From positions 1 to 52,919 of IMG/VR virus record IMGVR_UViG_3300022223_000005: a DNA stretch of 52,919 bases; one strand, written 5' to 3'. The notes beneath the pieces were generated by a model, which saw nothing but the letters and a program-made list of their open reading frames with translations, did not search any database and was not told where the DNA came from. Source of the stretch: a virus. Taxonomy: Duplodnaviria; Caudoviricetes. Numbering within the stretch: position 1 is the first letter of the stretch; each line of letters starts with the position of its first letter. Shown here in pieces: positions 8,081 to 48,051 of this stretch. The translations under genes and the position numbers were made by a program.

Positions 8081-8141
8081 TATTAGTATTTTTTATATAT
8101 TTGTAATCTCGAAAAGAGATAACCAATCTTTCGATTTTTTT
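8081..8141 (+). promoter_or_regulatory. promoter and 5' hairpin module of omegaRNA cassette 1
   Basis: TATATTTG (-7 element) at 8096-8103, then hairpin TCGAAAAGAGAT..ATCTTTCGA; 61 nt identical to 46672-46732. Confidence 0.7.
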
Positions 8142-8142
8142 A

Positions 8143-8259
8143 AACATTTTGGTTCGGGCAGAGCCAATGTTCGTTAACGTGGTGCATTAGCACGAGCGTT
8201 GAGCAAGAATCCCCTAGTCTTTAGATGTGGGAGTGTCAATTCTACAGGTATTGTAATCA
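8143..8259 (+). ncRNA. stand-alone TnpB omegaRNA/reRNA copy 1 (guide about TTCTACAGGTATTGTAATCA)
   Basis: 8143-8212 identical to 26327-26396 at the tnpB 3' end; right-end hairpin and GTGTCAA ending at 8239; no IS left end or tnpB nearby. Confidence 0.8.
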
Positions 8260-8270
8260 TATCTATTTTT

Positions 8271-8606
8271 TTAAGAGGTTATTAATGATAATTGATGAAT
8301 CCTATCTTCAATAGTAAATGCGTTTTCATTATTCGAATTTGTTTCATCTTCTATTATTTCGACCTCATCAAATATCATCTGAGTGAACTTGCTTTTCAAT
8401 TGGTCCGAAAGTTCGATAGCATTCATACTTGAAAGACTTATAAATTCATCTACGATCAATTCACAAGATGCTTCGAAGTCTATATGAAAAGATATGTGAT
8501 AATCTTCAGTTGTGGAAGACATACCCACTAATGATAATGATTGTCCTGAATCGCATTTTAATTGACTTGTAAGCTTAGAAAGCTTTGTTTGTTTAATTGG
8601 TGGCAT
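8271..8606 (-). CDS. hypothetical protein
   Basis: 111 aa ORF with a TATATTTG promoter on the minus strand at 8638-8645. Confidence 0.55.
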   Translation of the reverse strand: MPPIKQTKLSKLTSQLKCDSGQSLSLVGMSSTTEDYHISFHIDFEASCELIVDEFISLSSMNAIELSDQLKSKFTQMIFDEVEIIEDETNSNNENAFTIEDRIHQLSLITS

Positions 8607-8898
8607 ACAATTATTTATTATGTTGTTATTGACAATGCAAATATATGAATATTTTTGAATAATATTGCTGTTTTCAGTAATATTTTTAAGTCTATTCTTT
8701 ATTTATAATCTTTCTAAATAAGTGATTGCATCAAATTAAAGATAGTAAAAAATATTTAATACACAGTGTAATAGGTAGGAAACCGTTGTTTTACTTGGAA
8801 TTGCAAACTATACTAAAAACTTTTTTAACTAAAATACGGTAAACCATAACCGAGTTACGGAAAATAGTTGTATGTTTGCATTGAACAAATAATATACA

Positions 8899-9138
8899 AT
8901 GGAAAAAATCGATCAAATTATTGTAAACTTATTAGCAACCGGAATGACTCAAAAAGAAGTTGCTGAACATTTCAAATCAAAAAACATACTCCCTTCAAGT
9001 GTGTCCATAATTGAAAAAAGAATGAAAAAAATAAAAAAGAATTTTCACGCTAAAACATCAATTCAACTTGGCGTAACACTTGTAAGATTGGGCTACATAT
9101 ATAAAAGCCCAGGGCGTGCATTAAAAATGAGACCATAA
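8899..9138 (+). CDS. LuxR-like HTH protein
   Basis: LLATGMTQKEVAEHF..SIIEKRMKKIKKNFHAKT; preceded by TATGTTTG. Confidence 0.7.
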   Translation: MEKIDQIIVNLLATGMTQKEVAEHFKSKNILPSSVSIIEKRMKKIKKNFHAKTSIQLGVTLVRLGYIYKSPGRALKMRP

Positions 9139-9177
9139 TTATAATAACAGCTATATTAATCGTTAACAACAATTAAA

Positions 9178-9453
9178 ATGATAACCAAAAAACAATTACA
9201 AATACAAAAAATGCATTCAGGATCACAGAAGATGCTTGATACATTGAAAGAACTTAGTTTGTCAGAGAATATAAATTTTGATGAATCATTAAAGATAAAA
9301 GACGCCATTGAAGCTTCAACATTGGATGTTAATTGCAAAATCATCGATAAATCAATTAATGTGATGGAAGCACTAAAAAGGTCAATGGGTGTTAATTTTT
9401 TAGATGAACAAATTGCCTTAGAAATAATAGTAAACACATTTAAGAACAATTAA
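9178..9453 (+). CDS. hypothetical protein
   Basis: ORF in the rightward early operon. Confidence 0.55.
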   Translation: MITKKQLQIQKMHSGSQKMLDTLKELSLSENINFDESLKIKDAIEASTLDVNCKIIDKSINVMEALKRSMGVNFLDEQIALEIIVNTFKNN

Positions 9454-9462
9454 AATAAAAAA

Positions 9463-9738
9463 ATGCCACAAAAAATAACAAAACAAATAGAGGTTAACAA
9501 CCAAAAATCCATAATAACAATAACAAAAACGAATCAAATTCAATTAAATGGTAAATCATTTTATAATGTTAACGTTCGTGGATTCGAAGGATGCAAATAT
9601 AAGTCTGATTATTCTGGCCACATCCTAAATCAAGATTTGTTGACCATTGCCGAATCTGACTTTGAACAATGGGCATTATTTCATAATGAATTAAGTGATG
9701 AAGAAAATCTATTGATGTCAAACGGATATTCGATTTAA
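9463..9738 (+). CDS. hypothetical protein
   Basis: ORF in the rightward early operon. Confidence 0.55.
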   Translation: MPQKITKQIEVNNQKSIITITKTNQIQLNGKSFYNVNVRGFEGCKYKSDYSGHILNQDLLTIAESDFEQWALFHNELSDEENLLMSNGYSI

Positions 9739-9770
9739 ATCACATAAAACAACTAATAAAAATAGAACCA

Positions 9771-10346
9771 ATGAATAAAATCCCTACATTAATTCTAATG
9801 ATAATTACATTGTCATTAAGCTCACAAACAACATTTGAAAAATTAAACCCATTTATATCTATCGGTGTTGATCCTAAAATGGCTACAAATGGTCCCGGAC
9901 ACGATTGGGGTAATTCACCTTCATTAGACTATGAAGTTAGAATAGGTTACTATCCAACAAATGAAAATAACATACGTATATGGCACGCATATAAGTCTCA
10001 TAAACGCATAGGCTTTCAGAAATGGACCTATTTGGCTGTCGATAAGAAATTGCAGGTGTTTAGTTGGATGAATCTATATGGAGGCTTAGAGATGTCTGGA
10101 ATAACTCGTAGAAGCTTTACGTATCACTACACAAAACCAAATGATTATTTGAAGTACACTACAAACCCATTGCTTTTTGGTGGGAATTTAGAAGTGCAAA
10201 TAACACCAAGCAAAAGCCGTTTTTCTATTGGACTAAAATGGGCTATGTATCAATCTGAAGATATATTGAAAAAACACAAGAAAGTTAGAAAAGATTTTAC
10301 GATGTCTATTTGTTTTCATTTGTTCAAGCAAAATTTACAAAACTAA
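9771..10346 (+). CDS. exported protein, possible small outer-membrane beta-barrel
   Basis: Signal peptide MNKIPTLILMIITLSLSSQ; alternating strands such as NLYGGLEMS, FGGNLEVQI, FSIGLKW. Confidence 0.5.
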   Translation: MNKIPTLILMIITLSLSSQTTFEKLNPFISIGVDPKMATNGPGHDWGNSPSLDYEVRIGYYPTNENNIRIWHAYKSHKRIGFQKWTYLAVDKKLQVFSWMNLYGGLEMSGITRRSFTYHYTKPNDYLKYTTNPLLFGGNLEVQITPSKSRFSIGLKWAMYQSEDILKKHKKVRKDFTMSICFHLFKQNLQN

Positions 10347-10369
10347 TTCAAAATACAAATACAAATATT

Positions 10370-10627
10370 ATGATTTTAAAAGACGAAAAATTAGGAAATT
10401 ACGAAGTACACCACGATGGTAATAATTATGCTGTGGTAGAAAAAACAGGTTTAAATAAAAAAGGTGAAGAAGTTTTTAAGACACACGCATATTGTTCATC
10501 TATGGCCAATGCACTTAATAGAATAGCTAAAATGCATACCGAAGGTAAAGGGGATACTTATGACTTAAAAACGTATGTTGAAGCGATAACCCGCGCAAAT
10601 GAACGAATAGAATCAGTACTGCATTAA
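10370..10627 (+). CDS. hypothetical protein
   Basis: MILKDEK start after an A-rich leader. Confidence 0.55.
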   Translation: MILKDEKLGNYEVHHDGNNYAVVEKTGLNKKGEEVFKTHAYCSSMANALNRIAKMHTEGKGDTYDLKTYVEAITRANERIESVLH

Positions 10628-10981
10628 TATCTGTATTTATTTTCTCTTGTTTAGTAACCGAGTTTACAACATAAGAAACGACATAAAACAATGTTTCTAG
10701 GCTTAAATCTAAGCAAGTGAATGTAAACCAAAAATTAATCAATAATAAAAAACAGTAGTTATGAAAGCAACAATCAATGAACACGGAAAATTAAGTGTTC
10801 AAGCTGAAACACCCTTGGAATCATATGCATTAGATAGATGGGCTGAGGATAACTTTTTTCTGAAAGAAGAAGGAATTACAAAAACTGAGAATATAATCAT
10901 TAACGTAGGATTTAAATAAAACTGTAGGTAAAATAGCGAGCCTATATTAAATCGCTTAATAATAAATCAATAATATTTAAA

Positions 10982-11344
10982 ATGAAAGAAGCAAACGAAA
11001 CAGTAGGAACAGCAAAACAATTAGTGCCTTTTGGAGAAGCTATTCAAGCCTTAAAACAAGGCAAAAGAGTTCAGCGTCAAGGTTGGAACGGTAAAGGTCT
11101 GTTTATATTTATGCAAGTACCCAGTGTAGTGGCAGGACATATTATACCAAAAATGACTTCCTTACCTCAATCTGTAAAGGATGAATTCGAGAAGAGGAGA
11201 AAAAAATTATCACAAAAAGATCAATCTAATTTTTTTATAAAATACCAAAATCAATTAGTAATGGTTTACCCAGACAACAACATCTATGGATGGGTAGCTA
11301 GTCCAAGTGATGTTTTAGAAAACGATTGGGTTGTATTAGACTAA
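10982..11344 (+). CDS. DUF2829 / Thoeris anti-defence Tad2-like protein
   Basis: FGEAIQALKQGKRVQRQGWNGKGLFIF and GWVASPSDVLENDW, hallmark DUF2829 motifs. Confidence 0.75.
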   Translation: MKEANETVGTAKQLVPFGEAIQALKQGKRVQRQGWNGKGLFIFMQVPSVVAGHIIPKMTSLPQSVKDEFEKRRKKLSQKDQSNFFIKYQNQLVMVYPDNNIYGWVASPSDVLENDWVVLD

Positions 11345-11346
11345 CC

Positions 11347-11372
11347 GAATGCCCTTCGGGGCGTTCATTTTA
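11347..11372 (+). terminator. hairpin/terminator with UUCG loop
   Basis: GAATGCCC-TTCG-GGGCGTTC followed by ATTTT, right after the stop codon. Confidence 0.55.
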
Positions 11373-11381
11373 ATTGTAGTT

Positions 11382-11582
11382 ATGAAAGAATCAAAAGAAA
11401 ATGGTTGGGTAATAGTAAATGAAGATGGAACCATCTATGATTTTACTTTCTGCAGAACTAGAACTGATGCACAAAGTAAATGGGTAGCACTTTGGACTAA
11501 ACCAGACAATTGGAGAGCGCATTATAGAAAAGGAATGAGGTGCGTAAGAGCAAACCAGATAACACAAATACAGCAGAAATAA
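11382..11582 (+). CDS. hypothetical protein
   Basis: MKESKENGW start; stop overlaps the next ATG (TAATG). Confidence 0.5.
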   Translation: MKESKENGWVIVNEDGTIYDFTFCRTRTDAQSKWVALWTKPDNWRAHYRKGMRCVRANQITQIQQK

Positions 11583-11935
11583 TGAGCACACCATTTTCAT
11601 ATGTTGAGAACGAAAAGATTGATTTAAGCAATCAAAAACATCGTGACGAAATAATTAAGAGAAACAAGAATTTAGAAAAAATATGCTCTCAAAAACATTA
11701 TTTGGAGGATATGACTGTACATGTTAGTGCTCAATTTGATATTGATTGTCCTAAATGTGGTTCTATAATAACTGGGGAAACAGACATTGAAGTACAGTTT
11801 GGTACAGAATCAGATATAGCAGATCATTTTGGTGATTTAAGATGTCGTAATTGTGACTTTGGATATTTCAAATTATTAAACCTTCATCAAAACGAATGGA
11901 TGGCAGGTTGCAAACCGAAAACAAATGACAACTAA
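11582..11935 (+). CDS. zinc-ribbon protein
   Basis: CPKCG and CRNCD motifs. Confidence 0.55.
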   Translation: MSTPFSYVENEKIDLSNQKHRDEIIKRNKNLEKICSQKHYLEDMTVHVSAQFDIDCPKCGSIITGETDIEVQFGTESDIADHFGDLRCRNCDFGYFKLLNLHQNEWMAGCKPKTNDN

Positions 11936-11975
11936 AAACAGTAGGTATTGAGGTGCCTAAACAAAACAACAAATC

Positions 11976-12497
11976 ATGGAAGAAATAAAATATAGTATTA
12001 AAAAAACGACAGTTGAAAGTTATAAAGTTAGATGTGACAGTTTTTATTGGGCAGATATTACAATTGATGCAGATGGTAAAATGGGAAGAATACAGATTGT
12101 ATCAGATTTTGGAAGCTGGCAAAATTATTGGGGTGCCTGCGGTTGTTCATTTAAAGAATTTTTACAGAAAATAAATATTGATTATGCGGCAGACAAGTTT
12201 GGCGCTCATAAATGGTTTGATTTAGACCGAACTATTATTTCATTAAAAGAAAGAATCAATGATTACACTGATGATAAAGAGGATTTATTAAAAGAATTAG
12301 AAAGTTTGGAAAGCTCTTCGGGTAAAGATGAATTTATTCACATCATGCATAATTGCGATGAGATAATGAAAATGGAGAATTATTATCCAGATATGATTTA
12401 CTCAATAGAACCAGGTTTTAAAAGATTTTGGAAAGAGGTATGGCCAGTATTCACGAATCAGTTATCAAAAGAATTAGAACAGTCAATTAAACAATAG
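11976..12497 (+). CDS. hypothetical protein
   Basis: 173 aa ORF in operon. Confidence 0.6.
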   Translation: MEEIKYSIKKTTVESYKVRCDSFYWADITIDADGKMGRIQIVSDFGSWQNYWGACGCSFKEFLQKINIDYAADKFGAHKWFDLDRTIISLKERINDYTDDKEDLLKELESLESSSGKDEFIHIMHNCDEIMKMENYYPDMIYSIEPGFKRFWKEVWPVFTNQLSKELEQSIKQ

Positions 12498-12500
12498 ATA

Positions 12501-13331
12501 ATGTGGATTGTACCAAAAAACATATTGAACAACAAAGAATACTATCTTTTTGCTACGGGTACGGAGGTCTCGAAAGAGGAATTTCAGAAATCATTCCCAC
12601 AAGAACTGTCGCTTATGTGGAGATCGAAGCCTTTCAAAACTTCAACCTGGTATCAGCGATGGAATCGGGTATGGTGGATAAAGCACCTATTTGGACGAAT
12701 CTTAAAACCTTCGATGCAAAACCGTTTCATAACAGAATACACGGAATCGTTGGGGGTTATCCGTGCCAAGGGGAAAGCCACGCAGGTAAAAGAGAGTTGT
12801 GGAACGATGAGCGATTCCTTTGGCCTTATATTGAAAAGGCTATCATCGCAACAAACCCTTTTTGGTGCTTCTTCGAAAACGTCTCTGGACACCTTACGGG
12901 ATCTTTCCCCTACATTCTTGACAGCTTACGATCTTTGGGTTACACAGTTGAAGCAGGATTGTTTACAGCGGATGAAGTTGGCGCGCCACACGAGAGAAAA
13001 CGGGTCTTTATACTCGCGATGGGCGACACCCAGGGCGTTTTGTTACAAAGATTCGGATCACGATCGAGGGAAAAGCAATTTAGGGGAGCAAGTAATGAAC
13101 TTTCCGACTCCATCTGCAAGAGATTACAAGGGGGCGAGTTTTGGAGCAAAAGGAAGGGATTGCCTAGATTTTGCTGTAGAAGTAAACAAAACAAAACATT
13201 ATGGCCAGCTAAACGAGGGCAATCACAATACGAATGGGAAGCTTATAGAACGGTTGAACCCGGAGTGGGCTGCACAGTTAATGGGTACAACTTTCGAACA
13301 GAGCTTTTACGCCAGTATGGCAACGGAGTAG
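12501..13331 (+). CDS. alternate-frame methyltransferase partner (beta-like chain carrying TRD-type motifs and motif IX)
   Basis: 276 codons open; WATPRA, FPTPSARDYKG and RLNPEWAAQLMG are typical of phage C5-MTase variable region and motif IX. Confidence 0.7.
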   Translation: MWIVPKNILNNKEYYLFATGTEVSKEEFQKSFPQELSLMWRSKPFKTSTWYQRWNRVWWIKHLFGRILKPSMQNRFITEYTESLGVIRAKGKATQVKESCGTMSDSFGLILKRLSSQQTLFGASSKTSLDTLRDLSPTFLTAYDLWVTQLKQDCLQRMKLARHTRENGSLYSRWATPRAFCYKDSDHDRGKSNLGEQVMNFPTPSARDYKGASFGAKGRDCLDFAVEVNKTKHYGQLNEGNHNTNGKLIERLNPEWAAQLMGTTFEQSFYASMATE

Positions 13332-13393
13332 TAAGTCAAACCGCAGCATTGGCCTTTGAAACATTATTAGATAAAATGACATTAAAACAGTAG
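12503..13393 (+). CDS. C5 cytosine DNA methyltransferase, catalytic (alpha-like) chain
   Basis: Motif I SFCYGYGG, IV GGYPCQ, VI FENV, VIII PHERKRVF, X RQYGNGV; no motif IX evident in this frame. Confidence 0.85.
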   Translation: MDCTKKHIEQQRILSFCYGYGGLERGISEIIPTRTVAYVEIEAFQNFNLVSAMESGMVDKAPIWTNLKTFDAKPFHNRIHGIVGGYPCQGESHAGKRELWNDERFLWPYIEKAIIATNPFWCFFENVSGHLTGSFPYILDSLRSLGYTVEAGLFTADEVGAPHERKRVFILAMGDTQGVLLQRFGSRSREKQFRGASNELSDSICKRLQGGEFWSKRKGLPRFCCRSKQNKTLWPAKRGQSQYEWEAYRTVEPGVGCTVNGYNFRTELLRQYGNGVVSQTAALAFETLLDKMTLKQ

Positions 13394-13394
13394 T

Positions 13395-14427: not shown

Positions 14428-14724
14428 ATGAAAAAAATAAAAATAGCATTAGCCGCATTGATCATTTCAATATCATCTTGTAGCACTGATGATGATGCAA
14501 CAAACGAAAACCAAATGATTGACATCACACAAGATGTTGAGGGCAAAAAACTAATAACAACCGTAACAATATTAATTTTTCAATCTGATGGTTGTCGTTA
14601 TGAGTCAGAAATAGACATCAATACAAATCAATCAATATGGATTTCTGCAACTCCATATGATTGTCCAATCTATGGAGGTAATTCAGATATCGATATAATG
14701 GAAAACGATGGTAGCACTGATTAA
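14428..14724 (+). CDS. lipoprotein
   Basis: MKKIKIALAALIISISSC followed by acidic STDDD (Bacteroidota-type lipoprotein signal); own promoter TATATTTG at 14364. Confidence 0.7.
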   Translation: MKKIKIALAALIISISSCSTDDDATNENQMIDITQDVEGKKLITTVTILIFQSDGCRYESEIDINTNQSIWISATPYDCPIYGGNSDIDIMENDGSTD

Positions 14725-14743
14725 TTTAAGATACAAAGTAAAC

Positions 14744-15730
14744 ATGAAAACATACACAGGAAATTTAGTCATAACAAAAGAAAATTATAATAATTTTAAA
14801 GAACTTGTAGAAGTTTCTGGTTCCATCGACGTTAGGGAGAACGCAACACTGACAGCGCCTAAGTTGGAGAAGTCTGGTTACATCTACGTTATGAAGAACG
14901 CAACACTGACAGCGCCTAAGTTGGAGAAGTCTGGTTCCATCGACGTTAGGGAGAACGCAACACTGACAGCGCCTAAGTTGGAGAAGTCTGGTTACATCGA
15001 CGTTAGGGAGAACGCAACACTGACAGCGCCTAAGTTGGAGAAGTCTGGTTACATCTACGTTAGGGAGAACGCAACACTGACAGCGCCTAAGTTGGAGAAG
15101 TCTGGTTACATCTACGTTATGAAGAACGCAACACTGACAGCGCCTAAGTTGGAGAAGTCTGGTTACATCGACGTTAGGGAGAACGCAACACTGACAGCGC
15201 CTAAGTTGGAGAAGTCTGGTTACATCTACGTTATGAAGAACGCAACACTGACAGCGCCTAATTTGGAAATTAAAAGTAACGTTGCCAAGATAAACGACAA
15301 GAAATACAGAGTAATACATAACGATGGAATTGCATTCTTTGTCGAAAGAAGCAGGACAACGAAAGGTATGAATATCCATTATGGTATAATGAGTATCAGT
15401 TGTTCCGAATTAGAAATAACAAGCAAAGAGGCTTTTGTAGTGGATAAGGACGGGTTCAGTGCGCACGCAGAAACCTTGAAGGAGGCCATTGTCGAATTGA
15501 ACTTCAAAATAGTTGCAGAGAAATTAAAGAACGACCCGATACACGAAAACACATTGATTACGGACAACTACTACAGATCTGTAACTGGAGCTTGCAAATT
15601 AGGAATAAAACAATGGAGGGAACAAAACAACATAACCTCTGAGGAAATAACAGCAAAGGAATTGCTTCCAATTCTTGAAAAAACAAAAGCGTACGGACTA
15701 AACAGATTCAAAAAGCTAATTGAATTTTAA
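14744..15730 (+). CDS. 20-aa repeat (beta-solenoid-like) protein
   Basis: About 7.5 copies of SG(S/Y)I(D/Y)V(RE/MK)NATLTAPKLEK; C-terminal YRSVTGACKLG domain. Confidence 0.75.
   Translation: MKTYTGNLVITKENYNNFKELVEVSGSIDVRENATLTAPKLEKSGYIYVMKNATLTAPKLEKSGSIDVRENATLTAPKLEKSGYIDVRENATLTAPKLEKSGYIYVRENATLTAPKLEKSGYIYVMKNATLTAPKLEKSGYIDVRENATLTAPKLEKSGYIYVMKNATLTAPNLEIKSNVAKINDKKYRVIHNDGIAFFVERSRTTKGMNIHYGIMSISCSELEITSKEAFVVDKDGFSAHAETLKEAIVELNFKIVAEKLKNDPIHENTLITDNYYRSVTGACKLGIKQWREQNNITSEEITAKELLPILEKTKAYGLNRFKKLIEF
14814..15266. repeat. 60-bp tandem repeat, about 7.5 units
   Basis: Near-identical units varying at three positions. Confidence 0.9.
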
Positions 15731-15761: not shown

Positions 15762-15798
15762 TTGACACTACCAAAATATTTAGGTGGGGGAGTGTCAA
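15762..15798. mobile_element. 37-bp palindromic IS-end minielement (degenerate RE/RE)
   Basis: TTGACACT-ACCAAAATATTTAGGTGGGGG-AGTGTCAA, right half identical to the IS right end. Confidence 0.75.
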
Positions 15799-24625: not shown

Positions 24626-24691
24626 ATTATAATATTTTTTAAGTAAATACTATTTCTATGTTCAAATTATTGGTGGCTAATTTTATAAAAC

Positions 24692-24729
24692 TTCAGGCAT
24701 CTATGCTAATATACGATTAATTTTAATTT
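24692..24729. repeat. 38-bp direct repeat (copy 1), putative duplicated leftward promoter
   Basis: TTCAGGCATCTATGCTAATATACGATTAATTTTAATTT identical to 27245-27282. Confidence 0.85.
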
Positions 24730-24775
24730 TTGACACTCCCCCACCTAAAGACTTGGGGATAAAAGAATGACACGT

Positions 24776-25186
24776 CTACTTAGGTCTATTTTGTTGTTCA
24801 ATGTACTTTTTAACGACGTCAAGTGTAGCACCTCCAACGCTTCCAGCGAAGTAACTAGGAGACCACAGCGCGCCTTTGTAAAAACTACTTGAAAGACTTG
24901 GATAGTTTTGCTTTAAACGCCTAGAGGTAACACCCTTAATTGCATTTACTAGTTTTGAAACAGATACTTTTGGAGGATAGTCGATCAGTAGGTGTATGTG
25001 GTCACCCTCACCATTGAACTCTTTTAACACGCAATCTTTTTGCTCGCAAATAACTCGTGTTACATCTTCAATGTACTGTAAATGAATAGATTTAAGAACG
25101 TTGCTTCTATATTTTGTGACGAACACTAAGTGTACGTGCATTAAAAAAACGCAATTTCTTCCCTTTCTGATTTGTTTGTTTAACAT
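24776..25186 (-). CDS. tnpA: IS200/IS605 HUH Y1 transposase
   Basis: HLVFVTKYR, DHIHLL (HUH), KGVTSR, LWSPSYF, KYIEQQ catalytic Tyr. Confidence 0.97.
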   Translation of the reverse strand: MLNKQIRKGRNCVFLMHVHLVFVTKYRSNVLKSIHLQYIEDVTRVICEQKDCVLKEFNGEGDHIHLLIDYPPKVSVSKLVNAIKGVTSRRLKQNYPSLSSSFYKGALWSPSYFAGSVGGATLDVVKKYIEQQNRPK

Positions 25187-25189
25187 TAA

Positions 25190-26374
25190 TTGTATAATTT
25201 AGACCCATTAATTAAAAGCGTGAATTTAATAATAAAATCATATAAATACAAGTTAAAGACCAATAATACTCAGTATGAAATACTGAATAATTGGATCAAT
25301 ACTTGTCGTGCGGTGTACAATCTATCTTTGGAAACTAAGATAGAGGCGTACAAAACTAGGCAGGTATCTCTTAGTAAGTATGATTTAATGAAACAACTCC
25401 CTGAATTAAGGAATGAATTTGAATGGATCAAGGACGTTCCATCACAGTCTATGCAAAATGTAGTCGAACGCCTTGATGCTGCTTACAAGAAGTTTTTTAA
25501 AGGAGGCGGTTTTCCTAAATTCTCAAAGAAAGGAGCATACAAATCCATTCTGTTCAAACAAGGTGTAAAATACAGTAAAACACACGTAACATTTCCTAAG
25601 ATTGGCAAAATAAGATTCTTCAATTCTAAAAACATACCAAATGGATCAAAGATAAAAACAGCAATAGTAAGAAAAGAAGTAGATGGATTCTACATTAGTA
25701 TAGTAGTAGAGCAGATTACAGAAAAAAAACATTTCAATCCAAAAAGTGATAACCAAGCTGTAGGAATTGATATGGGTGTAAGTAAGTTCTATTCGCTTTC
25801 TACTGGAGATTCAAAAGAGAACCCAAGGGTATTGAAGTCATTTGAAAAAGAAATGAGAATTGCTCAAAGGTCACTTTCTAGGAAGGTGAAAAAATCAAAC
25901 AACTGGTACAAGCAACTTAAAAAAGTACAAAAGATTCATCTTAAAATAGGTCGTGTTAGAAAAGACTTTAGCCAAAAAGCAAGTACGGAACTAATAAGTA
26001 GTTTTAGCAAAATAGCCGTTGAAGATTTGAAGCTTAAGAATATGACAAAATCATCAAAGGGCGATTCAGAAAACCATGGTAAAATGGTCAAGCAAAAATC
26101 TGGGTTGAACCGTGTGATTTTAGATGTTGGTATAGGTGAGTTCTTTAGACAACTAGACTACAAGTCCAAATGGTACGGAAGGGAGTTTGTAAAGGTAGAC
26201 CCAAAATACACCTCTCAAACTTGCAGTGATTGCTCTCACAAGTCAAAACAAAACAGGAAAACACAATCAAAATTTGAGTGTGTAAACTGTGGTCACAAAG
26301 AAAATGCGGATATAAATGCCGCGAAAAACATTTTGGTTCGGGCAGAGCCAATGTTCGTTAACGTGGTGCATTAG
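25190..26374 (+). CDS. tnpB: RNA-guided endonuclease TnpB
   Basis: RuvC I GIDMG, RuvC II VEDL, zinc finger CSDC..CVNCG, RuvC III NADINAAKNI; all three acidic residues present; the true start may be GTG 25220. Confidence 0.97.
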   Translation: MYNLDPLIKSVNLIIKSYKYKLKTNNTQYEILNNWINTCRAVYNLSLETKIEAYKTRQVSLSKYDLMKQLPELRNEFEWIKDVPSQSMQNVVERLDAAYKKFFKGGGFPKFSKKGAYKSILFKQGVKYSKTHVTFPKIGKIRFFNSKNIPNGSKIKTAIVRKEVDGFYISIVVEQITEKKHFNPKSDNQAVGIDMGVSKFYSLSTGDSKENPRVLKSFEKEMRIAQRSLSRKVKKSNNWYKQLKKVQKIHLKIGRVRKDFSQKASTELISSFSKIAVEDLKLKNMTKSSKGDSENHGKMVKQKSGLNRVILDVGIGEFFRQLDYKSKWYGREFVKVDPKYTSQTCSDCSHKSKQNRKTQSKFECVNCGHKENADINAAKNILVRAEPMFVNVVH

Positions 26375-26443
26375 CACGAGCGTTGAGCAAGAATCCCCCA
26401 GTCTTTAGGTGGGGGAGTGTCAAAAAATTTCTTCAAATTCTAA
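26327..26443 (+). ncRNA. native omegaRNA/reRNA (guide about AAAATTTCTTCAAATTCTAA)
   Basis: Overlaps the tnpB 3' end and right end; stems TTGGTTC/GAGCCAA, TGC/GCA, CCCCC/GGGGG; 5' boundary inferred from the copies. Confidence 0.8.
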
Positions 26444-27208
26444 TACTAATGTAGCTGAAAATATAGAAGCAGCTACATTGTTATTATTAAATACGATTCT
26501 TAATTCGTTTGACTTATCAATTATTATATCTGAAAACAATTCATCATCTTCAAATTCACTTAAAGCACCGTTAACATTTGGTGTTTTTAATCCTATTGTT
26601 TTTCTAGCTATTATTTTTGGATTTAAAACAGTATTCCCAAATGGCGTTTTCCATTCAGATTTGAATACAACTAAATCTATTTCCGGTGAACCTGATGCGT
26701 TTGTCCACCCTCTAAATGTAGCACTTTTTATTTTACACTTAAAACTAACAACCTGTGTAATACCTTGAATAGTGTGATCTGAAAAATCATTGTCAGGTGT
26801 TAAATTCGCGTTATTTGGCGAGTAAGTATAATTATTTAAGTTGGCCGAAATACTAGATAATGATTGCCATATAGTTGATCCTGATGATCCTCCAGAAACT
26901 ACAAAAACAATTCTTTCAGTCCTTTTTGATGGTGAAACGTCAAAAAAAAACGGATAATTCAATTCTTTCAACCTGGTAACTAAATCCAAAGCAGTTGTAA
27001 ATGTTTCTTCTGCTGATGATCCTGTTTCATCAACTACTATAATGTTTGCAAGTGAATCACGTATATTGTCGCTTCCTGTTGGCTCGGTTAACTCAAAATC
27101 ATCCCCATCCATCCTGAAGTGGCCTTTAGACAATATTATGGTTTCACCTGAACTATTTATATGCGCCCAAATGTTAGATATGTTCTTTTTAATTATTTTT
27201 GTTGACAT
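26420..27208 (-). CDS. hypothetical virion-associated protein
   Basis: In the tail region; its TGA stop is supplied by the IS right end. Confidence 0.6.
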   Translation of the reverse strand: MSTKIIKKNISNIWAHINSSGETIILSKGHFRMDGDDFELTEPTGSDNIRDSLANIIVVDETGSSAEETFTTALDLVTRLKELNYPFFFDVSPSKRTERIVFVVSGGSSGSTIWQSLSSISANLNNYTYSPNNANLTPDNDFSDHTIQGITQVVSFKCKIKSATFRGWTNASGSPEIDLVVFKSEWKTPFGNTVLNPKIIARKTIGLKTPNVNGALSEFEDDELFSDIIIDKSNELRIVFNNNNVAASIFSATLVLEFEEIF

Positions 27209-27244
27209 GTTTATATGTGTTCAAATAAGCACAATGCGCAATAA

Positions 27245-27282
27245 TTCAGGCATCTATGCTAATATACGATTAATTTTAATTT
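27245..27282. repeat. 38-bp direct repeat (copy 2)
   Basis: Identical to 24692-24729. Confidence 0.85.
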
Positions 27283-40031: not shown

Positions 40032-40487
40032 CTATTTGTTATTTTTAGGTTTTGGGCCTCTTTTCTTAGGCTTAACATCTTCCACAACCTTTTTAGGTTT
40101 ATTTGGTTCAACTGGATCGATTGGATCGATTGGATCGATTGGATCGATTGGATCGATTGGATTAACTGGATCAACTGCATCGATTGTATTAATAGCTTCA
40201 ACCGGGTCTATTGGCTCAACTTCAACGTTAATTTCAGTTGATTTTTTCAACTCTTCCAATTCGCCTTTAACTTTTAACGGTTCTTCTTGTGATGTGTCCA
40301 ATTGCCCTTTTAAAACAGGGTAATCTTTTACGATTTCATTTATTTCTTGTGACAACTCAGATTCATCAACCTCAATGTCGCCTTTAATAAATGTGCATTT
40401 CAATCCATATCTGGAAATCATCAACCTCATACGAGTATTGATGATTTCCAGTTTATCTTCTCTACCTTCAAAAATTAACTTTCCCAT
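40032..40487 (-). CDS. hypothetical protein with DPI repeats
   Basis: 9-bp GGATCGATT tandem repeat at about 40114-40160; basic KKRGPKPK tail. Confidence 0.6.
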   Translation of the reverse strand: MGKLIFEGREDKLEIINTRMRLMISRYGLKCTFIKGDIEVDESELSQEINEIVKDYPVLKGQLDTSQEEPLKVKGELEELKKSTEINVEVEPIDPVEAINTIDAVDPVNPIDPIDPIDPIDPIDPVEPNKPKKVVEDVKPKKRGPKPKNNK

Positions 40488-42052: not shown

Positions 42053-42059
42053 TTTTGTT

Positions 42060-42932
42060 TTAATTTAGATTTAGTAAATATTTTTGTTTGTCTTCAAGTG
42101 CTTTTTTAGCGGCTTGTTTGTTTTTATCTTCAAGTGCTTTTATAGCGGCTTGATCTATTTCATTTTTATTTTGTGGCTCTGGTTCAATCTGTCCAGTAGT
42201 ACTATTACTTCCAAAAAGAACAAGAGAGCTTTCACTTGTGTTCTTTGCTTCTTTTACTATCCAGAAATAACTTATTTCGCCATTAGCATCCTCATATTCA
42301 TCTTTATTAGATATTTCTGAAATGTATCTATCAAAATTGGCCTTTAACTCCTTATCTTCTTCTAAAATACTATTCATTGCAAATTCAATGATAACATACT
42401 GCATTCTCACACTAGCTTCAATAGCATAGTCATTATCTAGAAAATCTTTAGCCAAAGGATTCATTTTATCTTTTCTTATTTTGTAAATCAAAGCCTCAGT
42501 ATTTCCTTGGTAAGATTTTCCCAATAATGAAAAAGGAATTTCAGATACAAACATGTCCACATCTTCTTTTTTTGCTAATGTAGTAACTAGGCTTAAAACG
42601 TGTGTATCAACCAAATAGTTTTTAAACCTTCTTTCCTTACTTGTTTTGTTCCATATGCCTTTTACGTGCAAATCTCTATGACTGTCTAGTATTCCAGTGG
42701 TATTAACTACTATGTAATAGTAATTATCATCTTCAAAATCTTGTTTACAAGGGTGATTTGAATTAATCTTTGAAGCATCCAAACATTTTGCTTTTACGCT
42801 TGAATCCTTTTCAACTGATTTTTGTATCAAAGACTTTTTTAAACCTATAATATCTTTAAAAGACTTTCGTAAGGCACTAAACATTGATTGTTTTGTTTCA
42901 AAGCTTTTATCTAATTCCTTGCAGTATATCAT
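42060..42932 (-). CDS. putative prohead protease
   Basis: Between portal and capsid; LDSHRD, H, EASV and ESSLVLFGSN motifs. Confidence 0.65.
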   Translation of the reverse strand: MIYCKELDKSFETKQSMFSALRKSFKDIIGLKKSLIQKSVEKDSSVKAKCLDASKINSNHPCKQDFEDDNYYYIVVNTTGILDSHRDLHVKGIWNKTSKERRFKNYLVDTHVLSLVTTLAKKEDVDMFVSEIPFSLLGKSYQGNTEALIYKIRKDKMNPLAKDFLDNDYAIEASVRMQYVIIEFAMNSILEEDKELKANFDRYISEISNKDEYEDANGEISYFWIVKEAKNTSESSLVLFGSNSTTGQIEPEPQNKNEIDQAAIKALEDKNKQAAKKALEDKQKYLLNLN

Positions 42933-43046
42933 TTTAAAACGTCTTTAGAACCCGTTATGGATTTTATTTTTTTGTCAATTTCTTTTTTCAACTCAGGTTT
43001 TCGGCTCGCAACGTCCTTCATCTGTTTAATTTTCGGATTATTTTCA

Positions 43047-44453
43047 CTAATTGTTTTCATTGTCATTTGTGTTTTGTCTTGATGCGCTTGTCTGTTTGTT
43101 TATTGCCATAAGTTGTTCCGGTGACAAATCCCATATATGAAGCTCACCTATTTCATCATTGTTTTCTAGATCCATACATGAAAGAACATAATTATAGTTA
43201 ACCGCACCCATTCTAAAAGCTTTTTCTGCTGCTTCAATGCTTATTTTCTTTGTTTCAGATGTTTCTTTCTTGTTTTTCTGAAGAACCTCAACATGATCAA
43301 ATGATCCAACAAGTCTTATCCCGTGTTCTTCTAATCTTAAAAACTTATTTAATGCTTCATCATCTGCTTCTGATTCAGGAATTATAGTCGAATCATATAG
43401 TCTTTTTTCTGCTGCTGATGCGTTTTCAAAAGTTGCACCTGTTACATATTGCTTAACTAATAATTCAGGAACTCCATATGCAGTTGCTACAGTTATGGCA
43501 TTTGCTTCTATTTCTTCAAAAAGTTTTAATTCATCGACATTAAATCCTGTCTTTTGATACTCCATTGGCTGTCTAGAAAGAAAAAATGAGTGTTGATCAT
43601 CTTTCATTCCATATTTTCTGAAATCCTTTTGTGTTTGTTTAACCTCTTCTTTTGTCATTGGAATGTTTCCAACTGCCGGATCAGTTTTTTTAGCGCTCAA
43701 CATTCCTGTTGGACCTCTACGATGTATTAAGATATTTCTGCTTTCATACGCCCCTTGAATATTTGAAATAGGGCGCTGTAATGCAACAAGTTTGGATTCT
43801 CCAAGAACAAAAGACGAATTTAAATCAAGATTTGTTTCTGAGTTTTTAAGAATAAACTCAGAATTTATTTTGTTTATATCTCCATTTATAGCTGTGAATT
43901 GGTATTCTGAAATAATTTCACTTGTTGAGGTTGCTGTCAACCATTTTCCAGTTAAAACAACTGCAATTTTATCTGGGTGTAACGTGTTTAAAGCTAAAAT
44001 ATCTTTATAATCGAAAAACTTTTCGAAACCAGAAGGAAATGAAGCATATTGAAATGAATTACCAAATACATAGTAATTTATTTTGTTTTGCTTCAAGTAC
44101 TTCTTTCCGGAACCTTGTAATGGATTTGGGCTATTTATTAATCTTTTCAACGCCCCTCTATCTTTGTCATAGTCTCTTAACAGTACTTTCTCGCCTGTTT
44201 CTAGGTCCTCAACAAAATATTTCTTATTTGAATATGCCGTAGCTTTTATATCGATTATAGCCTGTACTATTGGGTTTGTTCTAAATACTTTTAGCAAATA
44301 ACGATCTGTTGAGACTTTTGTATAAACAGGTACTCCAGACGCTATAAATGTATTTGCCGCAAAAGAATAAGGCAAATTAGTTTCAAAGTCTGTTTCTATA
44401 GGCGCTTTAACAGTGTCTTTGCTTTTATTAGTAAAAAAATCTCTAAAACCCAT
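43047..44453 (-). CDS. portal protein
   Basis: FGNSF, GESKL, AYGVPELL, ATFENA; HK97-like portal. Confidence 0.9.
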   Translation of the reverse strand: MGFRDFFTNKSKDTVKAPIETDFETNLPYSFAANTFIASGVPVYTKVSTDRYLLKVFRTNPIVQAIIDIKATAYSNKKYFVEDLETGEKVLLRDYDKDRGALKRLINSPNPLQGSGKKYLKQNKINYYVFGNSFQYASFPSGFEKFFDYKDILALNTLHPDKIAVVLTGKWLTATSTSEIISEYQFTAINGDINKINSEFILKNSETNLDLNSSFVLGESKLVALQRPISNIQGAYESRNILIHRRGPTGMLSAKKTDPAVGNIPMTKEEVKQTQKDFRKYGMKDDQHSFFLSRQPMEYQKTGFNVDELKLFEEIEANAITVATAYGVPELLVKQYVTGATFENASAAEKRLYDSTIIPESEADDEALNKFLRLEEHGIRLVGSFDHVEVLQKNKKETSETKKISIEAAEKAFRMGAVNYNYVLSCMDLENNDEIGELHIWDLSPEQLMAINKQTSASRQNTNDNENN

Positions 44454-44935
44454 GTTTTTTTGATTAAAAAAAATCGTTATATTTTCAAATATAGGTATTT
44501 ATAATTATTTATATTTATTATAAATAGCGTTTTAGAGTGGAATTTTGTATTATTGCTGTGTGGGACTCTCTGAAATGTCGCAATAAATAAAGTCAGAAGC
44601 TTGGCATAGTACTAAAAACCAACGCCATAACATCGTTATAATGTTATGGCGTTTTTTGTTTGAATACCATTAATAATTTAATTAACAATCTATTAATAGT
44701 GTTTTAATTTGTATTTTTTTAGTGTGTTTATGTATTATGTTTAATAGTCTATTTCTTTATTTTTTAAATGGGATTATTCTATTGACCCTGTGCAATTCCT
44801 TCATCCATTGTATATGATTTACAGCGAAATCAATTAAATCAATTGGTTTTTTGTCTTTAACCCTTCTGAAGCACTCAATTTCAACTATCAAAATTAAATA
44901 TATGAGTTTTATTTTGTGCTGTTTTTCTTCGATTG

Positions 44936-45292
44936 TCATTTGGAAAGTATGGTTATTATCTTAAAATCTTGTACTACAATTACATTTTTACCAAATTTAA
45001 ATTTTCCATATCCTCCTAGATCAACTATTAACCTGGTTAAATCTTCTGTTAATATTTGTTTTTTTATTAAATCCAAGTCAAAATCAAGTATTCTATCGAA
45101 ATATCTTACAAAAGCATGATCTGTAATTTCAATCTGGTCTTTGCCATTCAATATTCTTTCCTGTCTTTTTAGTTTTTTGAGTACATTCCTAGATTTAATG
45201 TACTCTTTATGTGCTGAAACGTGTTTTATTTTATTTATGTCTTTTTCAATTTCTGCATTTTCTATTTTTTTGTTCAAATTTTTTAAATTCAT
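44936..45292 (-). CDS. hypothetical protein with TDHAxxRY motif
   Basis: Coiled coil plus ITDHAFVRY..IITIL (possibly RelE/DUF4258-like). Confidence 0.55.
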   Translation of the reverse strand: MNLKNLNKKIENAEIEKDINKIKHVSAHKEYIKSRNVLKKLKRQERILNGKDQIEITDHAFVRYFDRILDFDLDLIKKQILTEDLTRLIVDLGGYGKFKFGKNVIVVQDFKIITILSK

Positions 45293-45353
45293 TTTTGTTT
45301 TTTTTCGTTAAAATTTTCGTTGGCCTTTTGTATTGCTGCTTTTCTTGCTTCTT

Positions 45354-45390
45354 TTGACACTCCCCCACCTAAAGACTGGGGGAGTGTCAA
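45354..45390. mobile_element. 37-bp palindromic IS-end minielement (RE/RE)
   Basis: TTGACACTCCCCCA-CCTAAAGAC-TGGGGGAGTGTCAA with 14-bp perfect arms. Confidence 0.85.
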
Positions 45391-45430
45391 AGATTTTACG
45401 CACTTGTATATATATTGGAGTTAGCTGCAA

Positions 45431-45799
45431 TTAATTTTTTACGATTTCGCATTCCATAAGTCCGTCATAATTTGCTAACCTTTCGCTTAAAAATCCCCCA
45501 ATACTTTCCCATACATCATCAGTCCATCCCTCTTTCAAAATGGTTCTAAATTCATAGAAAGTATCAAAGTCCGTGTCTTGTATAAAAAAGCATCCAGAAT
45601 TTAGTAATAGTTTGCCTTTTCCGTTTACTTCTAAATCAAAGTACTTGTCTTTAAAGTAAGAGTCACCAAAGTAGGCTACAAAAAAACCATTTTGAACCCT
45701 TGCTATCTTCCAATCAAAGTCATTTTCATCTTGGTACGTATGGCATTCTTGGTATTGTTCCGTATTGGGAAATTTTTCGATGGGCATTGAGTATATCAT
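45431..45799 (-). CDS. hypothetical protein (cassette-like)
   Basis: 122 aa; bounded by GTTAGCTG/CAGCTAAC. Confidence 0.6.
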   Translation of the reverse strand: MIYSMPIEKFPNTEQYQECHTYQDENDFDWKIARVQNGFFVAYFGDSYFKDKYFDLEVNGKGKLLLNSGCFFIQDTDFDTFYEFRTILKEGWTDDVWESIGGFLSERLANYDGLMECEIVKN

Positions 45800-45921
45800 A
45801 ATAAAAAAATTAACAGTTCGCTTCGACAGCTAACAATGTGTATAAAAAATATCCTAATTAAGTTTTGTAATAAAAGGCTCGTTACTTAACCGAAGAAAAA
45901 CAAAAAGCCTTCAACACGTGC

Positions 45922-46173
45922 TTACTCTTGCTTAATAAAAACCGTTTTAGTCATATCTAACCAGACTGGTGGTTGTGTATTTCCAGAGTTTATACCTAGC
46001 CATAATTTTCCGTGAAACAAGAATTTAAGTCTTTTCCAAAATGGAACAGTCCATAAAGAAATGCATTCGCCATTTTCAGACCTATACACCCATAAACTTC
46101 CACATTCTTCATCTGACATAGATGCAGGTTTTTTTAATTCAATGTGGGCTTCTTCAAAATGTAATGGTTTCAT
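45922..46173 (-). CDS. hypothetical phage protein
   Basis: ECGSLWV..CISLW..RLKFLFHGKLWL..QPPV. Confidence 0.65.
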   Translation of the reverse strand: MKPLHFEEAHIELKKPASMSDEECGSLWVYRSENGECISLWTVPFWKRLKFLFHGKLWLGINSGNTQPPVWLDMTKTVFIKQE

Positions 46174-46175
46174 AA

Positions 46176-46424
46176 TTAGTTTTGTTTGTGAGTTTCGTTC
46201 ATAAAAAATTGTCCTACTTGAGTAATCATATTATCAAGAGTTTTAAATGCTTCATCGTCAGATAATGCAGAAATGTCATTTTGTAAAAGCATTAATAATT
46301 GTCCAAAAGCACCGTAAAAAACTCTTTTAGTTTCAACTCTTTGTACTGTTGGCATTTTGCTTTCATCTAACTTCATTCTTTGTAAATAAAGTTTGTACTG
46401 GTTTTCAATGTTAAATTTGCTCAT
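46176..46424 (-). CDS. hypothetical protein
   Basis: MSKFNIENQY start. Confidence 0.55.
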   Translation of the reverse strand: MSKFNIENQYKLYLQRMKLDESKMPTVQRVETKRVFYGAFGQLLMLLQNDISALSDDEAFKTLDNMITQVGQFFMNETHKQN

Positions 46425-46484
46425 AATTGTAAATATTTGGCGAAGCCATTTGCCCACGCTCTTTTTTGTTTTTAGTTGTATTTA

Positions 46485-46529
46485 TTGACACTCCCCCACC
46501 TAAAGTGAGGGGGTTTTTCGAAGACGGTG
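46485..46529 (-). mobile_element. 45-bp single-hairpin LE/RE hybrid minielement (PATE-like)
   Basis: Minus strand TTAT|CACCGTCTTCGAAAAA-CCCCCTCACTTTAGGTGGGGG-AGTGTCAA. Confidence 0.85.
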
Positions 46530-46671
46530 ATAAGTTCGTTCTGTCTTGTTTTAATTTTTCAATCTTATGTTTTAATTCCATAGTTTTTGCATATTTAAAA
46601 CACAAATCTACAAATTTAAATTTGATTTTTTATTAATTTATAATAATTAAAGTCAAATGCAATCATAATTG

Positions 46672-46732
46672 TATTAGTATTTTTTATATATTTGTAATCT
46701 CGAAAAGAGATAACCAATCTTTCGATTTTTTT
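46672..46732 (+). promoter_or_regulatory. promoter and 5' hairpin module of omegaRNA cassette 2
   Basis: Identical to 8081-8141; TATATTTG at 46687-46694. Confidence 0.7.
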
Positions 46733-46733
46733 T

Positions 46734-46850
46734 AACATTTTGGTTCGGGCAGAGCCAATGTTCGTTAACGTGGTGCATTAGCACGAGCGTTGAGCAAGAA
46801 TCCACTAGTATTTAGATTGTGGAGTGTCAAATATTTGTACAATGATTGAT
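46734..46850 (+). ncRNA. stand-alone TnpB omegaRNA copy 2 (guide about ATATTTGTACAATGATTGAT)
   Basis: 46734-46803 identical to 26327-26396; variant hairpin and GTGTCAA ending at 46830. Confidence 0.8.
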
Positions 46851-47120
46851 AAAAACACACCATTATTAAGACTAAAAAAAATACTAAAAGAAAAAGGTAT
46901 TAAATCAGTGGACTTTGCTAAACAAATCGGAGTCACGGAAAACACTGTATCAAATATCAATAATGGGAAAACGTTGCCGAAAATTCAACTACTTGTCAAA
47001 ATTGCAAATGTGTTAAACGTTGATATTAGGGATTTGTTTAATCCTACAAAGAATGTAACGACTAAGGATTTAATTAATAAAGGTAAAAATATATTTAATC
47101 AACTGGAACAGAAAATATAA
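46842..47120 (+). CDS. XRE-family HTH regulator
   Basis: LRLKKILKEKGIKSVDFAKQIGVT..LVKIANVLNVDIRDLF; ATG at 46842. Confidence 0.85.
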   Translation: MIDKNTPLLRLKKILKEKGIKSVDFAKQIGVTENTVSNINNGKTLPKIQLLVKIANVLNVDIRDLFNPTKNVTTKDLINKGKNIFNQLEQKI

Positions 47121-47257
47121 TCCAAATAAGCGCAAAATATATTAATTTCTTCGTTTTTTGAAGTGGAATTGTTTGGGATGTTTGTTCTACTTTTTTTTCG
47201 ACTTTAGATTTAGAGTGTATTGTTGAAAATAATTAATATAGCTTATTTGGGTTCTTA

Positions 47258-47302
47258 AAAAAGCCGCTTGACATTTTAAAAATGTTTTAAGCGGCTTTTT
47301 TC
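47258..47302. terminator. bidirectional terminator
   Basis: AAAAAGCCGCTT..AAGCGGCTTTTTT between convergent genes. Confidence 0.75.
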
Positions 47303-47320
47303 ATCAACATAGGTATGTTT

Positions 47321-47860
47321 TTAGTTTTCAATTCCGTTAAATAGAAAGAAAAGTTTCATAGTTGCTTCAGTATCTCCCATCGCTCTATGCGGATTATTAT
47401 TTACTATTCCAAAATGATTAAGCAATACCGGTAATGAATTGCTAGATGTACCAATATCCATTTTCCTTGCAGATTCTAAAGTGCAATAGTATTGCTGAAA
47501 CACAAAAGGATAATCAAATGATCTTAGAAAATATTCAGTCCATTTTTTATCCATATTCAATACATTGTGACCAATTATACATCGTACATTATTGTCTAAA
47601 AGAATCTTTTGTATATCTCTTGCGGCCATATCTGCTTGTATGCCATTTTTTAATTGACTCATAGATATACCATTTACATTCATAGCTTTAACATTATACA
47701 CGACTGGTTTTCCATTAAAACGCGATATGTACGGCTTTATAAGAGCTTCATATCGTGTAACCTCTTTAAATTCACTATCCAATACTATAACTGCTATTTC
47801 ACACAATGCGTTTGTTTTAACATTAAACCCTCCAGTTTCGACATCTATTACTGCATACAT
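47321..47860 (-). CDS. DEDDh 3'-5' exonuclease (DnaQ-like)
   Basis: VIDVETGG, GHNV..D, HRAMGD; start MYAVID at 47860 (the ORF-track extension runs through the MITE). Confidence 0.9.
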   Translation of the reverse strand: MYAVIDVETGGFNVKTNALCEIAVIVLDSEFKEVTRYEALIKPYISRFNGKPVVYNVKAMNVNGISMSQLKNGIQADMAARDIQKILLDNNVRCIIGHNVLNMDKKWTEYFLRSFDYPFVFQQYYCTLESARKMDIGTSSNSLPVLLNHFGIVNNNPHRAMGDTEATMKLFFLFNGIEN

Positions 47861-47880
47861 ATTTTTTTGTTTTAGTTTAT

Positions 47881-48031
47881 CACCGTCTTCGAAAAACCCC
47901 CTCACTTCAGGAGGGGGATAAAAGAATGACATATTTAGTTTTGGTTCGGGCAGAACCAATGTTCGTTAACGTGGTGCATTAGCACGAGCGTTGGGCAAGA
48001 ATCCCCCAGTCTTTAGGTGGGGGAGTGTCAA
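47881..48031 (+). mobile_element. 151-bp non-autonomous IS200/IS605 derivative (left end plus omegaRNA/right end)
   Basis: TTAT|CACCGTCTTCGAAAAA-CCCCCTCACTTCAGGAGGGGG-ATAAAAGAATGACA joined to the scaffold and right end; ATAAAAGAATGACA is shared with 24759-24772. Confidence 0.88.
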
Positions 48032-48051
48032 GTTATTGAAATTATTTATTT
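47939..48051 (+). ncRNA. omegaRNA copy 3 (guide about GTTATTGAAATTATTTATTT)
   Basis: Scaffold with two substitutions (GAACCAA, TTGGGCAA), both compatible with base pairing. Confidence 0.65.

Follow-up and report, generated by a model that had tools for sequence, protein, structure and literature searches.

Several described systems resemble the locus reported here. Stand-alone omegaRNAs of OMEGA systems, encoded without an effector or transposase, work in trans and add targets without duplication of the system, and their role is stated to be unknown (PMC10691335). Palindrome-associated transposable elements (PATEs) encoding omegaRNA are known from the IS200/IS605 insertion sequences (IS) of G. 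stearothermophilus (PMC10055086), TnpB functions with RNA in trans (10.1101/2023.11.20.567912), and phage-borne tnpB genes are known (10.64898/2026.02.14.705889). Homing against co-infecting phages has been reviewed (PMC13565253), and IS605 promoters can be repressed by Arc (10.64898/2026.09.24.754181). The virus record IMGVR_UViG_3300022223_000005 (52,919 nt; G+C 32.6%) was analysed in full as the window to which all coordinates refer. It carries one tnpB gene and, apart from it, two nearly identical omegaRNA cassettes, A and B. We read these cassettes as IS605 insertion scars turned into stand-alone omegaRNA genes, which would still feed guides to the single TnpB against empty alleles, and give this reading a probability of about 50%. 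All comparative tests are constrained by the lack of a close relative of this phage: the 50 related records, whole records drawn from 98 related phage loci, are distant, with capsid identities of 41-66%.

As in IS200/IS605 elements and their PATEs, the window holds a Y1 TnpA with a TnpB, a TTAT-type target, a TCAA end, protein-free copies that need omegaRNA use in trans, and donor-joint guides (PMC10055086); one 151-nt element is a PATE in the sense of that report. Unlike in those elements, cassettes A and B lack a left end, show erosion of the right-end hairpin and have captured a promoter of the phage, and the autonomous element, too, has lost its left end. The cassettes lie apart from effector and transposase as stand-alone omegaRNAs do (PMC10691335), and would be a variant form of these. 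Mobilisation is described for the known ones, whereas the phage cassettes appear fixed, one of them within the mRNA leader of a regulator gene, and have a seed match to their own promoter.

Phage homing endonucleases, through marker exclusion or non-restorative transposon homing, likewise cut the insertion-less allele of a co-infecting relative (PMC13565253); here, one RNA-guided nuclease would instead guard up to four sites by means of separate RNAs. CreR/CreA also combine a nuclease-competent effector with repression of a promoter through a partial guide match (PMC12737573). In the phage, however, there is no CRISPR repeat or cas operon, and the matched promoter drives guide RNAs and a helix-turn-helix (HTH) gene, not the effector. 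TldR proteins are reportedly phage-borne, nuclease-dead TnpB-derived repressors; the likeness is that in both cases a phage carries a TnpB derivative with a guide capable of reading a promoter, but the TnpB described here keeps its D-E-D residues and its tnpA. The literature searched, mostly without full texts or subscription papers, yielded no description of TnpB RNAs that lack the left end and have captured a promoter which their own guide matches; the supplementary omegaRNA locus tables of PMC10691335 and PMC10055086 fall outside this search and could contain similar cases.

TnpB and its omegaRNA scaffold

25190-26374, plus strand: tnpB, 394 amino acids from TTG or 384 from GTG at 25220, with RuvC residues D194/E278/D374 and zinc finger intact
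26326-26423, plus strand: cis omegaRNA scaffold and IS right end, its TCAA doubling as the stop codon of minus-strand gene 26420-27208

A preliminary description of this DNA reported one intact tnpB and four scaffold copies followed by different sequences, and both statements hold. The tnpB product matches the Pfam families HTH_OrfB_IS605, OrfB_IS605 and Cas12f1-like_TNB, and its D-E-D triad (D194/E278/D374), the RuvC triad of an OMEGA nuclease, is invariant across 17 of 17 aligned homologues; unlike that of TldR, this RuvC domain has not been inactivated. A covariance model run on the window returned four full scaffolds at 104-108 bits and elsewhere hairpin fragments only. The four end in TCAA at 8239, 26423, 46830 and 48031, and no two of them share a 3′ flank.

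This scaffold RNA family is common to the window and five other phage TnpB loci. Its fold has covariation support, with double-sided changes in 18 of 25 consensus pairs, and a GGGCA loop and TGTC tail are invariant in all nine rows of the alignment (four from the window). These would form a loop-tail pseudoknot as described for ISDra2 (PMC10097598), giving the structured right-end omegaRNA typical of TnpB. The terminal hairpin is highly variable within the family, and a search of the scaffolds against Rfam assigned no family. Each of the five related TnpB records contains exactly one such RNA (5/5), a count that tests extra copies only, as the same loci built the covariance model. No tnpA lies within the fetched part of these five loci (L035, L036, L037, L040 and L046), several of which have very short terminal hairpins and a TCAG end; they are possibly a lineage of immobilised phage TnpBs.

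Structure of cassettes A and B

8072-8239, plus strand: cassette A, with TTAT (8078-8081) at its left edge, a -7 box at 8096-8103 and a scaffold at 8142-8239 with three hairpin substitutions
8240-8255, plus strand: guide A, the local flank of cassette A
46663-46830, plus strand: cassette B, with TTAT at 46684-46687, a -7 box at 46687-46694, a predicted +1 near 46699, a 36-nt leader and a scaffold at 46733-46830
46831-46846, plus strand: guide B, comprising the downstream half of a split promoter and the ATG (46842) of the HTH gene
46842-47120, plus strand: XRE/Cro-C1 HTH regulator of 92 amino acids, whose mRNA leader now includes the scaffold
25736-25759, plus strand: stretch inside tnpB similar to the leader of the cassettes, with 21 of 25 alignment columns matching, and the probable source of that leader

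As previously described, the two cassettes are near twins. Positions 8081-8239 and 46672-46830 are identical at 153 of 159 positions, the module at 8082-8141 and 46673-46732 at 60 of 60, and the module carries a perfect Bacteroidota -7 box, TATATTTG, at 8096 and 46687. No left-end motif was found in either cassette, so that neither has the paired ends of a PATE; each is a full scaffold apart from the effector gene in the same genome, as in a stand-alone omegaRNA. With a promoter of their own, an intact fold and the predicted pseudoknot, the two left-end-less scaffolds could supply guides in trans for one nuclease, and this part of the preliminary description stands on the sequence features; its comparison with an array does not.

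The same description held the shared module to be absent from the IS. The sharing is confirmed, but 25 nt of the module align to tnpB, and this stretch is the best match of the leader in the entire window. The score of the alignment was reached by 12-55 of 2000 shuffles within the IS, but by 41-104 of 150 over the whole window; a derivation of the leader from the interior of tnpB is suggestive only. The refuting case named in that description, in which the module is an internal part of a related IS and the copies are just deletion remnants, seems to apply to the leader, which has the look of a relic of deleted tnpB, but not to the promoter, which is phage-derived. A decayed left end as the origin of the module was rejected, its alignment to the left end being matched by 939 of 2000 shuffles. 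The tetranucleotide CAAT occurs at guide B positions 10-13 and at the start of the tnpB stretch, a microhomology that would fit repair of a cut empty allele off a filled one.

Cassettes A and B share the promoter, the bases upstream of it and two hairpin substitutions, and at the left edge cassette A has TTAT where cassette B reads TTGT. The favoured reading of cassette A is that B was copied into a further TTAT insertion site, a direction suggested by the presence of B's promoter in A. The copy may have arisen by one-ended action of TnpA or by recombination onto an older right end. Cassette A is antisense within a minus-strand operon and has no sense gene behind it. On the minus strand at 8240-8260, a short frame beginning with ATG (MITIPVE) extends into cassette A; it may be what is left of the 5′ end of a gene that the insertion disrupted.

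The split promoter of the HTH gene

Guide B opens with ATATTTG. When the last T of the TTAT to the left of cassette B is joined to guide B, the result reads TAHHTTTG, four bases, and ATG. The -7 box of Flavobacterium occupies positions -12 to -5 (PMC6847099, PMC9723704), which would place +1 at the A of the HTH start codon, i.e. a leaderless promoter. The downstream half of this pattern, with its 4-nt spacing and ATG, fits only 5 of 105,838 window positions. The same geometry of box and ATG, which was spotted by eye in loci L036 and L037, occurs in 2 of 19 HTH matches (1 of 8 from phages and 1 of 11 from bacteria) versus 30 of 3326 open reading frames (ORFs; p = 0.014). Since the TTAT flank and guide B rejoin as a promoter, insertion of an IS605 element after TTAT inside a leaderless HTH promoter is a well-supported reading of the sequence. 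In L037 the tnpB gene, and in L036 the small gene preceding tnpB, start 4 nt past a -7 box.

Today cassette B presents TTAT again, then the same 9 nt, and then the 36-nt leader, from which we surmise that the promoter was rebuilt 5′ of the element; the 9 nt could alternatively belong to a second promoter that shares the consensus. The label of lysogeny repressor was rejected for the HTH gene, as two more HTH genes lie at 3909 and 4285 (3909-4611). A search of the HTH protein in viral contigs gave no relative.

The whole course of events may be pictured as follows. An element would have inserted after TTAT within the leaderless promoter; the promoter would have been rebuilt 5′ of it, while the element lost its left end, its tnpA and all but a small part of tnpB, so that just the promoter, a short leader akin to tnpB and the scaffold stayed behind; and a copy of this unit would have been placed at another TTAT site, at 8.1 kb. 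RNAs initiated at the -7 boxes would be loaded on the single, now immobile TnpB. As each guide is the local flank, TnpB would cut the empty allele in a co-infecting sibling phage, and the outcome would be either spread of the scar or exclusion of that sibling. Within the phage's own genome, guide B would find only TTAT plus 9 nt, sufficient for binding but not for cutting, and this may turn down the two cassette promoters as well as the HTH gene. The contig would provide a traceable route, from promoter insertion through promoter rebuilding and loss of ends to cassette copying, for the passage from a single cis guide to multiple, independently expressed guides, a step from TnpB towards Cas12 and TldR. 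It also bears on the role of stand-alone omegaRNAs, called unknown in PMC10691335. Should the copies be silent, this is an ordinary IS-ridden phage.

Guides and their targets

The best matches of guide B in the window, TTAT plus 9 nt, lie at 8093 and at 46684 and coincide with the -7 boxes of the two cassettes. These are 2 of 1085 TTAT sites, and a match of 9 nt next to some TTAT is attained by 1685 of 104,728 positions. No guide reaches a 12-nt match in the window, and guide A has no TTAT-adjacent match longer than 5 nt there. The TnpB of ISDra2 needs approximately 12 bp for cutting (PMC10097598), and with that of ISDge10, which also uses TTAT, a 10-nt guide binds without cutting in human cells (PMC13507860). 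By analogy, guide B could let the phage TnpB bind its own cassette promoters without cutting them; with TnpB sitting on the -7 box, transcription of the two cassettes and of the HTH gene would be repressed. A partial guide match next to a putative target-adjacent motif (TAM) on a promoter is the arrangement seen with CreR.

This raises the question of whether the active TnpB has become mainly an RNA-guided repressor, with guide B closing both cassette promoters through the 9-nt match and the loading of leader RNA consuming the start of the HTH mRNA, much as in CreR. Besides the position of the two matched TTAT sites, guide B covers the HTH start codon, the IS and the cassettes all lack a canonical left end, and Cas effectors do show partial-match repression (PMC12737573). 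The match is nevertheless explained without selection, by the way the locus arose or by a consensus common to two promoters; the nuclease of this TnpB is intact, which that of TldR is not; guide A lacks a comparable match; and the arrangement is not conserved in the relatives examined. We hold a domesticated regulatory circuit of this kind to be unlikely. A combination of the two functions is entertained tentatively, as a doubtful proposition: domestication of an active TnpB by the phage may just have begun, the nuclease having been immobilised, a cassette freed and copied for a second guide, and guide B feeding back on the cassette promoters and the HTH gene while wild-type alleles of siblings are still cut. 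If true, one nuclease would be both weapon and repressor, with match length as the switch.

The preliminary description further proposed a dispersed equivalent of a CRISPR array, possibly directed against competing phages, empty alleles or host DNA. The twin cassettes do bear different guides, an unrelated viral contig of 121 kb has, within an ORF, an exact match to TTAT plus 16 nt of guide A, and TTAT plus 9 nt of guide B occurs 29 times in 61 Bacteroidota genomes, compared with 9 for the reversed control. Guide B, however, is contiguous native phage sequence, half a promoter plus an ATG, and not acquired from foreign DNA, which makes it the usual donor-joint guide of an IS605 element or PATE. 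The viral match to guide A ends at guide position 16 and is at chance level, some 0.1-0.5 such 20-mer matches being expected (an estimate that assumes tens of gigabases). TTAT plus 12 nt of guide A, guide B and the IS guide was found in 0 of 101 Bacteroidota genomes for each, and there is no acquisition machinery beyond TnpA. With at most seven seed sites per genome, too few, host shut-off by guide B was rejected as well. Guides acquired against the host or unrelated phages are very improbable, and among the proposed targets the evidence favours empty alleles.

Selection, expression and conservation

The distinct substitutions of cassettes A and B fall, seven of seven, within the 23-nt right-end hairpin (six of the changes in cassette B's hairpin), and none in the other 74 nt of the scaffold (p = 4e-5, the region having been chosen after looking). 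The mobile mini-element shows the opposite, two substitutions in the scaffold and none in the hairpin (Fisher, 0.028). The 74 non-hairpin nt also compare favourably with the leader, 0 changes versus 4 in 25 columns (p = 0.003, post hoc). Loss of the right-end hairpin may have served genome stability, and the copies may be of recent origin.

These patterns bear on a simpler explanation, in which the promoter was rebuilt just to rescue the HTH gene, the scaffold is a leftover of leader sequence, cassette A arose as a chance duplicate, and TnpB forms working complexes with RNA only to a small extent. The unchanged scaffold, its reversal in the mini-element, and the perfect promoter kept in cassette A, where no sense gene follows, speak against such inert hitch-hikers. 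In their favour, the contig holds many scars of the same IS, the layout is found in one contig only, and the leader may contain a terminator while tnpB has no exact promoter box. Raw, individually uninspected counts gave extra end-like matches in the fetched flanks of 13 of 94 other TnpB loci. The mutated cassette stems are kept no better than those of random mutants (2869 and 2492 of 5000 were as good), for which reason special preservation of the hairpin stems was rejected. We regard inert copies as possible but doubtful.

A number of points weigh against the reading of the cassettes as working omegaRNA genes, whose expression and loading on TnpB are predicted from the sequence. The cassette B leader contains alternative hairpins and a T7 run; of its two near-equal folds one forms a weak hairpin before T7 (-5.0 kcal/mol in the model), which might stop transcription before the scaffold. 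No exact -7 box was found upstream of tnpB in the window scan, only one-mismatch boxes, and the gene is antisense to the surrounding operon; the sigma-70 promoter scans that were made do not cover the -7-box type. Erosion of the hairpin is also seen in the scaffold-less palindrome at 15762 (five changes), and the scaffold identity may reflect youth. The data on binding without cutting concern another TnpB in human cells, the guide B seed is A/T-rich, and the putative TAM is deduced from the insertion target. No empty allele of cassette A or B was found in the searched loci, viral contigs or metagenomes (empty-allele patterns, 0 in 225 loci; for guide B, 0 in metagenomes). Neither TnpB nor the omegaRNA occurs in the 50 records of distantly related phages, of which 15 reach a completeness of 90% or more. 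The occurrence of the cassette layout in one contig only, the single RNA of each of the five related TnpBs and the lack of a convincing target argue against domestication.

Conserved cassettes with variable guides, which the preliminary description proposed to look for in related phages, were likewise not seen in these distant records. The 98 related phage loci (1.41 Mb) gave no tnpA, tnpB or close HTH match at E 1e-4, and exact patterns of the module and scaffold gave 0 hits in viral and 0 in metagenome contigs. BLASTN against annotated phages yielded one weak 38-nt match for the cassette and none for the flanking regions. The omega covariance model found nothing in 146 Bacteroidota genomes under strict filters, with 28 candidates scored per listed genome. 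Sequencing run X1 supports the junctions, and is probably the source sample of the window itself, hence not independent; runs X2-X4 contain only a relative's genes of the 45.9-46.5 kb region, and the cassettes were not found there.

The rearranged IS and its other remnants

24776-25186, minus strand: tnpA, a Y1 (HUH) transposase (Pfam Y1_Tnp) with HUH motifs and catalytic Tyr, divergent from tnpB
24730-24771, plus strand: rearranged IS left end, in which an inverted right-end hairpin and the 3′ half of a left end meet at GGGGAT, the TTAT site and left guide being gone
47881-48031, plus strand: PATE-like mini-element of 151 nt, with a true left end after TTAT (47877-47880), a scaffold with two substitutions, intact hairpins and no exact -7 box
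46485-46529, minus strand: 45-nt single-hairpin element after TTAT, the start of a left end fused to the finish of a right end
45354-45390, no strand assigned: right-end/right-end palindrome, a recombination scar without scaffold
15762-15798, no strand assigned: eroded right-end/right-end palindrome with five substitutions in one hairpin arm

A Y1 HUH tnpA divergent from tnpB, insertion 3′ of a short target without duplication and a TCAA right end are all typical of the IS605 group; the canonical left end is missing from the tnpA/tnpB copy. Having lost its TTAT site and left guide, the IS is predicted to be immobile, and its rearranged ends may have arisen by recombination between similar end hairpins. 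A 43-nt direct repeat (95%; 24687-24729 and 27240-27282), upstream of two minus-strand genes, brackets the IS and the 262-amino-acid gene 26420-27208. The paralogue has TTAC instead of TTAT at the spot occupied by the inverted right end.

TTAT stands before the mini-element, the 45-nt element and both cassettes, which bears out its role as the insertion target. In run X3, the alignment of one contig of a relative stops at 46484 and ATAA follows, an empty allele of the 45-nt element without duplication. TTGAC was rejected as a target, the TTGAC starts being inverted right ends. The mini-element has left and right ends and no ORFs, as expected of a PATE, and its AAAA guide fits TTAT under the pairing rule of IS608. 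The preliminary description had overlooked the 45-nt element, both palindromes and the 9-nt match of guide B to both module promoters; the noncanonical left end of the IS is a further correction to it. Adjoining the palindrome at 45354 is a 46-nt repeat (85%; 45391-45436 and 51830-51875), with a further similar block at 45242 and 51894, at the starts of paralogous genes.

Phage record and other features

Terminase, portal, major capsid and tape-measure genes are present in the window. The named homologues of TnpB come from Ekhidna, Microscilla and Tenacibaculum, and that of gene 7367-8047 from Tenacibaculum, from which we infer a host among the Bacteroidota. Five window proteins that were looked up belong to clusters with just one or two members each.

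The DUF6291 protein gene at 2870-3706, with internal 30-nt and 12-nt tandem repeats, resembles a replication initiator gene with iterons. A C5 cytosine methylase is encoded at 12503-13393. The 340-amino-acid ORF at 14708-15730 is built of approximately 11 tandem 57-nt units and has weak MarR/winged-helix matches, and the ORF at 40032-40487 contains a 9-nt tandem repeat (40094-40228). Right after the terminase large subunit gene, at 49255-49289 on the minus strand, lies a match to the Rfam DUF805b RNA that exceeds the gathering score.

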